A stretch of DNA of 64,000 nt, filler included. It is 12 parts of 12 records of this genome, joined end to end, with 100 filler letters (N's around TTAATTAATTAA, not from the genome) between each part and the next. Parts side by side here need not be neighbours in the genome. Positions count along the whole stretch, not along the records: positions 14,091 to 21,706 come from SRR7504441_6610; 11 more parts are not named here. One strand, given 5' to 3'. Below the pieces are notes generated by a model that worked only from the letters and a program-made list of their open reading frames with translations, was not told the origin of the DNA and searched no databases. A program made the position numbers and the translations under genes. The first letter of the stretch is position 1, and each line of letters begins with the position of its first letter. Positions 14,257 to 17,061 of this stretch are shown one piece after another.

Positions 14257-17061
14257 ATGTCGAAGGGGCAGACCTTGGTGGAGAAGATCGTGCAGCGGGC
14301 GGCCCGCGGCGCCCCCGGGCCGGTGCGCTCGGGCGACTTCGTGACGGCGCCCACGGGCCCGCGCCAGCCCGCGGAGCCGGCCGGTAGGTGGCTCCAGCGC
14401 ACGTGATGACCCACGACAATACGGCCGCGGTGATTAAGAAGTTCAGGGCGATCGGGGCGGCACGTGTGCGCCGGCCGGACCAGCCGGTGTTCACGCTGGA
14501 CCACAACGTCCAGGTGGCCCGGCCGGGTGGCCGATCTGACCCGCGGGCAGGACACGAGCGAGGAGAACCTGGTGCCGGGCGGCCGGCTCCGGGGCGATGG
14601 GGCGACAGGCCAAGTACTCTGGGATTGCGCAGTTCGCCGAGGAGCAAGGGGTGCGGCACTACGGGGCCGGGCGTGGGATTGGGCACCAGGCAGGCCGGCC
14701 ACGAGGCCCGGCCGAGCCGAGGCAGGTGATGGTGGAGGAAGGATTCGTGCTCCCGGGCACGATGGTAGTGGCCTCCGACAGCCACTCTAATATGTACGGA
14801 GGGCTCGGGTGCGCCGGGCGGGGCGGGCCGGCTCATGTGGCGAGAAGGTGTCTGGGTACTCCGATCGTGAGGACAGACGCAGCTGCCATCTGGGCCACCG
14901 GGCAGAGCTGGTGCGGCGCACGCGGCCGGAGAGGCACGGCGGGCAGGTGGCAGGTGCCACGGGTGGTGCGGCTCACGCTCACGGGCCGGCTCAAGCCCGG
15001 AGTCACGAGCAAAGACATCATCCTAGCCTGCTGTGGCGCCTTCAAGCAAGGCAGCCGCTGCGGGCAGGCCAGGCACTCAATGGCGGGCAGGTGAGGCGCT
15101 CAACGCAGCGGTGGAGATCACGGGGGGCGGGGTGGGCCACCTGTCGGTCGAGGACCGGTGGCCGCCAGCGGGGCCAGAGCTAACTGCTGGCAGCTTCACA
15201 ATCGCCAACATGAGCACGGAATGGGGCGCTCTGGCCGGACTCTTCCCCGCGGACCAGCTCACTTTGGACTGGCTAGATGTGCCCTCCGGCCGCCCCCTGC
15301 CCGACACGGTGGCAGCGCCGTCGGGCCAAGCTGCAACGCCGCTCTCCGGAGAATCTGAACTTGCCAAGGCTAGAAAGACTCTTGGAGGTGGCCGCGGCCT
15401 GCCTACAAAATCTGAACAGCCGGGGCAGGCTGGACTAGAAGCGCTCCCTGGGCCAGACGAGGATGCTAGGTACGCCGCGGAGCTCCAGTTGGACCTTTCG
15501 AGCGTCTCGCCGCATGTTGCTGTGAGCGGTCGGCTGTCCGGCTGTGATGCGGTGCAGGGGCCAGGCGACCCGAGCTTGGTGCGGCCATTGAGCATAGTGG
15601 AGCAAGAGCAGCTGGCGGTGCACAAGGCGTATATCGTGTCGTGTGTGAACAGCCGGGAGGCAGACCTGCACGCAGCAGCCCAGGCACGGGCAACTGCTGC
15701 TTCCGTGAGAGAGGGTGCAGGTCTTGAGCGGCAGGCAAGTGAGCCAAGGAGTCGAGCTCTACGTGGCAGCCGCCTCCAGCGAGGTGCGGCCAGCTCGGCT
15801 CAGCTGACCGCTGGGCAGGTGCAGCAGGCGTCCGAGGCAGCCGGTGACTGGCAGCTTCTGCTCAAAGCAGGCGCAATCCCACTGCCGTCTGGGTGTGGGC
15901 CGTGCGTTGGGCTGGGTAAGGGGCTTCTGAAAGAAAACGAGGTCAGCTCCGGTGTGGGGGGTGGGCAAGTAGGCGCAGGTGGGGATCTCTGCAACCAACC
16001 GGAACTTCCAAGGTCGGATGGGTGCCCGCACAGCCAAGGTTGGGCTGTGTTGGCGCAGCTGTCACGCCAGGGGTCAGGCTTACTTGGCGTCGCCTGCTGT
16101 GGTGGCGGCATCAGCTGCTGCAGGGTGAGGCCAGTGGTAGGCGGGCAGCTCAGCCGACCGGCAGGTACATATGCTCTCCAGAGCACCTCAACGGCGAGAG
16201 CTGCAGCACTCAGCCCTGGCGCACCCAGGCACCCTCTCGGTAGGTGTCACTCTCACTGGATCAGCAGGCAGCGACTGCAGAACTGACAACTAAGCCAGCG
16301 GGCGCGGCCGTGCAGATTGCGCCTGGATTCACGCCCAGAGTGTCTGGCCGGCTGGTGTTCTGCCCAGGTGGCCAGGGATCGGGCTGGGCTCTCAGAGCTG
16401 TGTGCAGCAAGCAACTTGAACACGGACGGCATATTTGCAGGGACGCACACATACAGTCATGACATGACATCGGATCAGATGGCTCAGGTCAGACCGCTGA
16501 CTCACTCGAGCTCACACGAGCGCTCAAGGTGCTCATGGAGAACTATGACCCCGAGTTTGGCGCCATTGCACAGCCGGGCGATATCCTGGTCCACTGAGAG
16601 AGAGCTGCCGGTCTGAGCTGGGACCAGGTGGCAGGGCCCAACTTCGGTTGCGGCTCGTCACGGGAGCAGGCAGCCACTGCTTTCCTGTGCAAAGGGATCC
16701 CAATGGTGATCGCCAGCAGCTTTGGCGAGACGTACAAGCGGAATGGGTTCAACAATGGACTGTTGTGTGTCGAGTGCCAGTCGGGGGGCACTCAGGCTGC
16801 TGACCACCGTCCAGGTGCCCGGGGCTGTTTGATGAACTGTCGAGCAAGCTCGGCGACAGCAAGAGGACCAACCGGACGGACTGGACTGCAGAGGTCTGCC
16901 ACTTGAGTCGGCCAGCTGAGGCTCGGGGATTGCAGATCGACTTTGCAGCCAGTACTCTCTCTGTCAATGGGTCCCAATATCCTATCAGCACAATCGGTGA
17001 GGTGGCCCAGACGCTCGTTGCAATGGGAGGGCTTGAGGCTTGGGTCCGCTCCCAATTGTAG
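14257..17061 (+). CDS. LYS4: Homoaconitase (LYS4-type, alpha-aminoadipate lysine pathway), about 22 introns
   Basis: Manual splicing gives [107 protein letters not shown]. Confidence 0.92.

Follow-up and report, generated by a model that had tools for sequence, protein, structure and literature searches.

GC-AG introns of near-minimal length in a GC-rich genome window, probably from a marine eukaryote

GC-AG introns form a class of U2-type spliceosomal introns which accounts for about 1% of the introns in model eukaryotes and in which the donor positions next to the GC are stronger (compensation rule). Introns of minimal length, as in ciliates, nucleomorphs and microsporidia, have narrow lengths near the lower bound, are AT-rich and almost all of the GT-AG type. 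Here, we describe the introns of a homoaconitase gene and of other genes in a 64-kb stretch of DNA, hereafter the window, which are near-minimal in length but GC-rich and have a GC donor in about every seventh case. The window consists of 12 short contigs of 3.0–8.5 kb each with a GC content of 51–67% per contig, chained by N44-TTAATTAATTAA-N44 linkers; since the linkers contain stops in all six frames and the contigs are merely joined, gene order across the linkers is meaningless.

GC-AG introns are predicted to make up ~14–17% of the introns of Aureococcus anophagefferens and ~14% of those of Pelagomonas calceolata, which is ascribed to high GC content (bioRxiv 10.1101/2024.10.30.620910). 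Ostreococcus lucimarinus has the 5′ site GTGCGTG and the branch site GACTGACG, and weak 5′ sites of 1–4 bits are normal for intron-rich species (Irimia & Roy 2008, PMC2483917). The small introns of the outlier chromosome (BOC1) of Mamiellophyceae are AT-rich, belong to a low-GC region and have no discernible branch motif (PMC3879977). The conventional introns of euglenids have GT/C-AG borders, and structure-dependent introns are found in the group as well (PMC3935182), while the introns of Amoebophrya are mostly non-canonical and structured (PMC7789003).

GC donors at homology-anchored junctions

The curated model of the homoaconitase gene runs from the ATG at 14257 to the TAG at 17061 and gives a product without internal stop (Table 1). 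An earlier note on this DNA had placed about 22 introns of 35–42 nucleotides (nt) in this gene, five of them with GC donors. For the alignment, the exon 16628–16780 was used as query, which gave 189 homologues at E <= 0.001 among 195 candidates, and a position-specific matrix of 652 columns was built from 33 homologues of 600–700 amino acids (aa). Matrix and DNA were aligned by a protein-to-DNA spliced aligner (dynamic programming) that accepts introns of any of the three phases. Run with GT and GC donors, the aligner returned the structure of the earlier note plus two artefacts, i.e. a one-codon exon in a variable linker and a spurious intron past the stop. The 33-homologue profile bears out the 22 introns, which all lie between 14347 and 16935 and are 35–42 nt long. 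Aligned to six homologues, the product was collinear, and all but one of the 22 junctions were free of gaps. Further, Pfam Aconitase matches were found on pieces of open reading frames (ORFs) of the gene.

All five GC-AG introns of this gene were found again at the same positions, four by homology and the one at 16229–16264 by frame logic. When every donor dinucleotide was allowed at equal cost (all-16-donor run), the aligner chose GT at 14 junctions, GC at four (14347, 14690, 15051 and 15684) and decoys at another four. Conservation is poor around all four decoys; for three of them a GT of similar score is available a few bases away, and the fourth, an AG donor (16205–16264), belongs to the variable linker. 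The junctions of the four GC introns are free of gaps and fall into conserved blocks. When GC was forbidden, the alignment score fell from 1469.9 to 1394.8 and the four GC introns were swapped for introns which delete or garble conserved blocks. The mildest of these alternatives, a 47-nt GT intron at 14341–14387, would remove two residues kept by all aligned homologues, and the sole in-frame GT alternative to 15051–15090 spans 58 nt and would cost conserved residues. No single G[TC]..AG intron other than 16229–16264 removes the in-frame TAG at 16241–16243 and keeps the frame; an ab initio run favoured 16229–16267.

Table 1 Homoaconitase gene and curated introns discussed in the text. Exon and intron are separated by a slash in the donor sequences.
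Feature	Position	Strand	Length	Donor	Gene, basis and remarks
Homoaconitase gene (LYS4-type, fused aconitase large and small domains)	14257..17061	+	653 aa		23 exons, 22 introns
GC-AG intron	14347..14387	+	41 nt	ACG/GCGCCC	Homoaconitase; all-16-donor run; junction gap-free in 6 homologues
GT-AG intron	14514..14550	+	37 nt		Homoaconitase; spliced alignment and all-16-donor run; 3 of 5 metagenome-contig differences inside
GT-AG intron	14572..14608	+	37 nt		Homoaconitase; spliced alignment and all-16-donor run
GC-AG intron	14690..14725	+	36 nt	CAG/GCAGGC	Homoaconitase; all-16-donor run; in frame, stop-free; splits block conserved in all aligned homologues
GT-AG intron	14809..14847	+	39 nt		Homoaconitase; spliced alignment and all-16-donor run
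GT-AG intron	14911..14946	+	36 nt		Homoaconitase; spliced alignment and all-16-donor run
GC-AG intron	15051..15090	+	40 nt	AAG/GCAGCC	Homoaconitase; all-16-donor run; six-homologue alignment
GT-AG intron	15158..15193	+	36 nt		Homoaconitase; spliced alignment and all-16-donor run
GT-AG intron	15279..15315	+	37 nt		Homoaconitase; spliced alignment; less conserved; GA decoy 3 nt upstream with about equal score
GT-AG intron	15388..15428	+	41 nt		Homoaconitase; spliced alignment; less conserved; decoy alternative in all-16-donor run
GT-AG intron	15522..15557	+	36 nt		Homoaconitase; spliced alignment and all-16-donor run
GC-AG intron	15684..15720	+	37 nt	CAG/GCACGG	Homoaconitase; all-16-donor run; no in-frame GT alternative with same acceptor
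GT-AG intron	15784..15818	+	35 nt		Homoaconitase; spliced alignment and all-16-donor run
GT-AG intron	15942..15978	+	37 nt		Homoaconitase; spliced alignment and all-16-donor run
GT-AG intron	16039..16077	+	39 nt		Homoaconitase; spliced alignment and all-16-donor run
GT-AG intron	16125..16164	+	40 nt		Homoaconitase; spliced alignment and all-16-donor run
GC-AG intron	16229..16264	+	36 nt	CAG/GCACCC	Homoaconitase; variable inter-domain linker; frame logic, no homology anchor
GT-AG intron	16368..16407	+	40 nt		Homoaconitase; spliced alignment and all-16-donor run
GT-AG intron	16488..16528	+	41 nt		Homoaconitase; spliced alignment and all-16-donor run
GT-AG intron	16589..16627	+	39 nt		Homoaconitase; spliced alignment and all-16-donor run
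GT-AG intron	16774..16814	+	41 nt		Homoaconitase; spliced alignment and all-16-donor run
GT-AG intron	16894..16935	+	42 nt		Homoaconitase; spliced alignment; less conserved; decoy alternative in all-16-donor run
GC-AG intron	19986..20027	+	42 nt	CAG/GCAGCC	EF-hand gene (19933-21706); local alignment to N-terminus of homologue P0141, all 16 donors
Candidate GC-AG intron	20269..20306	+	38 nt	AAG/GCACGG	EF-hand gene; ab initio only, unconserved region
GC-AG intron	20753..20790	+	38 nt	CAG/GCAGCC	EF-hand gene; homologues P0140 and P0141, all 16 donors; junction gap-free
GC-AG intron	27236..27279	-	44 nt	AAG/GCATTC	Rho-like GTPase gene (26512-27340, -); alignment to homologues P0166 and P0167
GC-AG intron	28778..28815	+	38 nt	AAG/GCGGGG	J-domain gene (27957-29327), inside J domain; Pfam DnaJ profile
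Candidate GC-AG intron	33469..33508	-	40 nt	AAG/GCAAGC	TPR-containing gene; ab initio only

Further GC donors had been proposed for the genes of a Rho-like GTPase, a J-domain protein, an EF-hand protein (three) and LTV1. The alignment of the Rho-like GTPase to two homologues gave three GT-AG introns and one GC-AG intron, with the same result when all 16 donors were allowed, which confirms the proposed donor. This intron splits the P-loop exactly between lysine and threonine, and a GT-only model needs an intron of 84–98 nt and loses 39–60 score units. Two of the three EF-hand introns were anchored by homology, 20753–20790 by two full-length relatives and 19986–20027 by the N-terminus of one of them; the third, 20269–20306, is plausible but unanchored, and a GT 12 nt upstream of its donor would give an intron of 50 nt. 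The J-domain intron holds at the motif level only: the Pfam DnaJ match covers profile positions 15–44 of 63 and stops at the exon end 28777, past which the frame shifts by 38 nt; there is no GT nearby and the next exon gives the rest of the domain by inspection. The LTV1 donor was not confirmed, the candidate 59531–59569 having GT alternatives 6 and 12 nt upstream. A second LTV1 candidate, 59339–59380, was rejected as unnecessary because the frame simply ends there. The candidate in the TPR-containing gene has a GT 6 nt downstream which would give an intron of 34 nt. In the motor domain of a kinesin-2 gene, five GT-AG introns of 40–43 nt were found with 8 of 9 retrieved homologues.

Altogether, the homology-anchored introns of the five genes comprise 27 GT-AG and nine GC-AG introns, and all 36 have G[TC]..AG borders. 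At seven of these junctions (homoaconitase, EF-hand and Rho-like genes) GC was chosen over 14 decoy dinucleotides; the other two GC introns rest on frame logic (16229–16264) or on a domain profile (28778–28815). Because the five genes were partly chosen as flagged, this share of GC-AG introns is approximate. The curated set of the window contains 72 introns, 61 GT-AG and 11 GC-AG (15.3%, 95% confidence interval 7.9–25.7%), which differs from an expectation of 1% with a binomial p of 1.7e-10. The earlier estimate of at least 11 GC-AG introns among roughly 80, far above ~1%, thus withstood the analysis.

A public metagenome contig of 235 nt covers 14485–14719 with five differences, four of them inside two GT introns, and the GC donor at 14690–14691 is unchanged in this independently read sequence. 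This bears on the possibility that a T at +2 was wrongly turned into C by the sequencing or by the assembly, which is fragmented and of low coverage. The contigs are indeed short, and one of them has an internal jump in the kinesin gene which is perhaps a misassembly. But eleven independent errors at the same intron position, each beside an A at +3, would be needed, and the one donor seen twice is identical in a contig which differs at five other positions. We regard such errors as an extremely improbable source of the GC donors.

Splice signals and the bases next to GC donors

The 72 introns are 35–46 nt long with a mean of 39.8 and a standard deviation (SD) of 2.3 nt and consist of 40% G, 30% C, 16% T and 13% A. 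The donor consensus is AG/GTGCGC, and positions +3 to +6 carry ~1.4 bits in total, in keeping with the degenerate donors seen before. The loose CTGAC-like element proposed earlier was recovered as well: CTGA[CG] is present in 19 of the 72 introns versus 1.9 in shuffled interiors, and a loose form of the branch motif with its A 8–22 nt from the 3′ end in 38 versus 10.6; the branch-like motif is GCTGAC-like. At the acceptor, position -3 is C in ~90% of the introns, and the first base of the following exon is G in ~60%. A pyrimidine tract is missing, as had been claimed. Positions -15 to -4 contain 43% pyrimidine and 42% G, and its place is taken by a G-rich stretch with 47–64% G at -9 to -4. A polypyrimidine tract is not universal among eukaryotes and its absence does not exclude membership in the U2 type. 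Besides, the introns are C-rich at +4 to +9, opposite to the G-rich end at -9 to -4, and there is an excess of G over C on the sense strand.

The GC donors differ from the GT donors in their neighbours. A was found at +3 in 9 of 11 GC donors versus 6 of 61 GT donors (Fisher p = 2.7e-6), and AG at -2/-1 in 10 of 11 versus 28 of 61 (p = 0.007), which substantiates the earlier observation that GC donors almost always follow an exonic AG. Positions +4 to +6 were not strengthened and matches to the U1 consensus average 4.9 of 9. Since donor position +3 was never a criterion in the selection of candidates, the A+3 signature is independent support for the GC sites as a real class.

The earlier note had explained these features by splicing specified largely by intron length, with relaxed U1 pairing. 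A spliceosome which measures a length of ~40 nt and pays little heed to the 5′ site, so that GT and GC, and perhaps other dinucleotides, are interchangeable, would fit the narrow range of lengths, the low information at +3 to +6, the missing pyrimidine tract and a splice grammar which is so weak outside GT and AG that decoys often score like real introns. However, selection for minimal introns is also expected to narrow lengths, only GT or GC was found at anchored junctions, with decoys confined to unconserved stretches, and a ruler does not predict that GC depends on A+3 and AG at -2/-1. The constraint on these bases when +2 cannot pair argues against relaxed U1 pairing. Further, a positioned branch motif is present, and this motif together with C at -3 and G at exon +1 carries sequence information, which argues against recognition by length only. 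A length ruler is therefore unlikely; the tiny GC-rich introns, their narrow lengths and the weak donors stood, the relaxed pairing did not.

Instead, we consider it quite probable that the segments are U2-type spliceosomal introns of the ordinary kind, close to minimal in length, from a GC-rich (~60%) marine eukaryote in which ~15% GC donors are tolerated where the flanks compensate. The introns would be removed by the major spliceosome, and each short intron would be recognised as one unit by three signals, i.e. a weak 5′ site with the consensus AG/GTGCGC, a loose GCTGAC-like branch motif with its A ~10–16 nt from the 3′ end, and a CAG/G acceptor which follows a G-rich stretch without a pyrimidine tract. 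A C in place of the T at +2, as in ~15% of the donors, would be tolerated only next to those neighbours which pair best with U1 and U6, A at -2, G at -1 and A at +3, and GC donors would thus read AG/GCA. They probably accumulate by mutation under a GC-biased substitution pressure of the genome. The AG/GCA pattern supports the idea that this pressure turns GT into GC wherever U1/U6 pairing absorbs the change, and the GC sites of the window are a compact set for testing it.

Several observations weigh against this conclusion. An ab initio Viterbi model made of codon log-odds and splice matrices recovered 19 of the 22 homoaconitase introns; when one decoy dinucleotide was allowed beside GT, it returned similar numbers of "necessary" introns for GC (17), CC (16), AG (15) and CA (14), and when its GC calls were inspected, six proved false or doubtful. 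In a splice-grammar score computed without regard to the donor dinucleotide, 35.0 per 10^4 GT candidates passed, compared to 10.4 for GC and 1.4–13.4 for the remaining non-GT dinucleotides. The length-specific pattern count, which is noisy, gave z = 0.7 for GC and 2.8 for GT. Two of the 11 GC introns (20269 and 33469) are unanchored, 14347 has the 47-nt GT alternative, and splicing at the exact GC sites is deduced from homologous proteins. Where a gene has no homologues, in-frame introns without a stop escape the hand-curated set of 72, which makes the 15% a rough value. Tests which use the sequence only cannot separate GC from decoys, hence the homology-anchored sites alone are strong evidence. 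With all 16 donors allowed at a middle penalty, the ab initio model gave 30 GT, 12 GC and 0–7 of each other dinucleotide. Among its six false or doubtful GC calls are 12664–12702, which is ordinary KH-domain coding sequence, and 17924–17964, where a GT lies 3 nt upstream. Unsupervised Viterbi expectation-maximisation, begun with flat priors, was abandoned after its boundaries had wandered off to TA/CG.

It could also be argued that most GC "donors" are artefacts of placement and that the true introns begin at a nearby GT or the segments stay in the transcript and are translated. The equal yield of decoy and GC introns in the ab initio runs and the six false or doubtful calls point in this direction, as do the in-frame GT alternatives for 14347, 20269 and 33469 and the in-frame, stop-free 14690–14725. 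We nevertheless judge this very unlikely, since 14690, 15684, 16229, 19986, 27236 and 28778 have no in-frame GT alternative for the same acceptor and GT-only alignments lose 39–75 score units and delete or garble conserved blocks. Retention of 14690–14725 would add 12 residues to a block which is gap-free in six homologues, and random misplacement would not yield the A+3 signature.

A non-spliceosomal origin, i.e. structure-guided introns like those of euglenids, mobile elements of the introner type or excision at the DNA level, was weighed as well. The euglenid borders are similar and the group has structure-dependent introns (PMC3935182), and the C-rich 5′ part and the G-rich 3′ part of the introns could pair. 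But the folding energy was no better than that of shuffles (mean z = -0.18), the ends of an intron paired no better with each other than with those of different introns (p = 0.10), a family-like similarity among the introns was not seen, and all 36 anchored cases have G[TC]..AG borders in addition to the branch-like motif. The best local score between intron interiors was 14, which equals the shuffle maximum, with a mild excess of moderate scores, so introner-like repeats were not found; similarity of introns to their own flanks did not exceed that of shuffles. U12-type motifs (rigid donor /[AG]TATCC, TCCTTAAC-like branch) were present in none of the 72 introns. Taken together, a non-spliceosomal origin is hardly credible.

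Genes, intron density and origin of the window

A Pfam search on 150 stop-to-stop ORFs of the window revealed a eukaryotic gene set with glycoside hydrolase 3, an ABCA transporter, a multi-KH protein, aconitase-family pieces, a protein kinase, EF-hand proteins, a DnaJ protein, a WW-domain protein, ankyrin and TPR proteins, an MMPL-like transporter, a GHMP kinase, CENP-K, YaaA, a lipase, LTV1 and kinesin. Single short exons mostly gave no match in Pfam and solved-structure searches, and tRNA genes, Rfam families and small nuclear RNA (snRNA) genes were not found within the 64 kb.

The density of introns is sharply uneven between genes, even inside one contig. The 1.96-kb coding sequence of homoaconitase is split by 22 introns (11 per kb), the ABC-transporter ORF of 3.3 kb has none and the LRR/kinase gene adjoining homoaconitase has at most one; uninterrupted ORFs of 2.8–3.6 kb (ABCA, TPR and an unknown 1199-aa protein) are located at 6383–9703, 34080–37676 and 44574–47342, all on the minus strand. 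A single, more far-reaching reading would join these observations: the window would come from an uncultured lineage of marine flagellates, matching in the searches made here no organism whose introns have been characterised, and its spliceosome is adapted to G-rich introns of ~40 nt, reads the acceptor without a pyrimidine tract and discriminates less at donor position +2, with the bimodal intron density caused by recent large-scale gain at AG/G sites or by selective loss. We give this joint reading an outside chance; if true, the lineage would be a new model of how minimal introns are spliced at high GC content.

Lengths divisible by three are not depleted (13 of 35 introns in the homoaconitase, kinesin, Rho-like and EF-hand genes, counted by hand). 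Several introns of such length have no in-frame stop (14690–14725, 27139–27177), and their retention would not cause a premature stop. In a metagenome contig of a related strain, position 15278, the last exon base before the donor at 15279, has G for T, which changes GAT/GT to the consensus GAG/GT.

In a FastTree phylogeny of 42 sequences (midpoint-rooted, grouping read without support values), the homoaconitase groups with eukaryote sequences, adjoining fungi and a telonemid and apart from a Phycisphaerae group. A horizontal transfer from Planctomycetes, considered because bacterial matches ranked high, is not supported by this tree. A fungal-type fused homoaconitase is also present in the telonemid Artemidia motanka (EukProt name; homologues P0003 and P0043 were compared) and matches the window protein by 53.5%. 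This hints that more protists may have the aminoadipate pathway of lysine synthesis than is commonly assumed.

The kinesin-2 (61005–62374, + strand) is 66% identical to a protein of Tetraselmis striata, and its motor domain is 83% identical to transcript-like proteins; the closest proteins are metatranscriptome-type or EukProt entries. The alignment of the kinesin-2 to homologues is perfect up to motor residue ~313 and then jumps, with a change of frame, to the last ~60 residues of the C-terminal tail. About 370 residues are absent; the gene copy may be truncated or the 3-kb contig chimeric by misassembly. Two DNA metagenome runs contain small shares (0.06–0.07) of the sequence words, and short contigs from them cover parts of the stretch and one GC donor. 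A metagenome scan with the query exon gave 80 loci with 62–74% identity, none of which is a close relative.

If about one in seven donors is GC, a gene finder restricted to GT would be expected to break the homoaconitase gene with its 22 introns very probably. Since signals in the DNA alone place such introns unreliably, the annotation of metagenome or single-cell genomes of this kind has to draw on RNA or on close homologues and to admit GC donors.

Comparison with known systems

A full-text literature search revealed no description of GC-rich introns of 35–46 nt with ~15% GC-AG, though prior publication is possible. Interest in the window would rise if the lineage turned out to be undescribed or its snRNAs or U2AF to be modified. 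Like the canonical GC-AG class, the GC introns of the window have GC at +1/+2, an AG 3′ end, AG at -2/-1 in 10 of 11 and A+3 in 9 of 11 cases; unlike it, they are about 15 times more frequent and positions +4 to +6 are not strengthened. With an SD of 2.3 nt the introns resemble those of minimal-intron regimes, from which they differ by being GC-rich and by the lack of depletion of lengths divisible by three.

The window signals GTGCGC, GCTGAC and CAG acceptor are like those of O. lucimarinus. But the signals of Ostreococcus are strict and its genes intron-poor, whereas those of the window are loose and some of its genes extremely intron-dense. The introns of the window also differ from the BOC1 small introns in having 70% G+C and a branch-like motif, from the nonconventional introns of euglenids in lacking a stable end-pairing structure and in having G[TC]-AG borders in all anchored cases, and from those of Amoebophrya in being neither mostly non-canonical nor structured.

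The pelagophytes are a precedent, high-GC marine protists in which ~14–17% of the introns are predicted to be GC-AG. The share of 11 in 72 (15%) is therefore not unprecedented, and the window is a second, independent-looking case of a GC-rich marine eukaryote with ~15% GC-AG introns. The pelagophyte introns given there average 103–177 bp with 0.14–0.9 introns per gene, in contrast to 35–46 nt and up to 22 introns in a coding sequence of 1.96 kb in the window. In the window, ~15% GC-AG introns go together with near-minimal length and a clean AG/GCA compensation.

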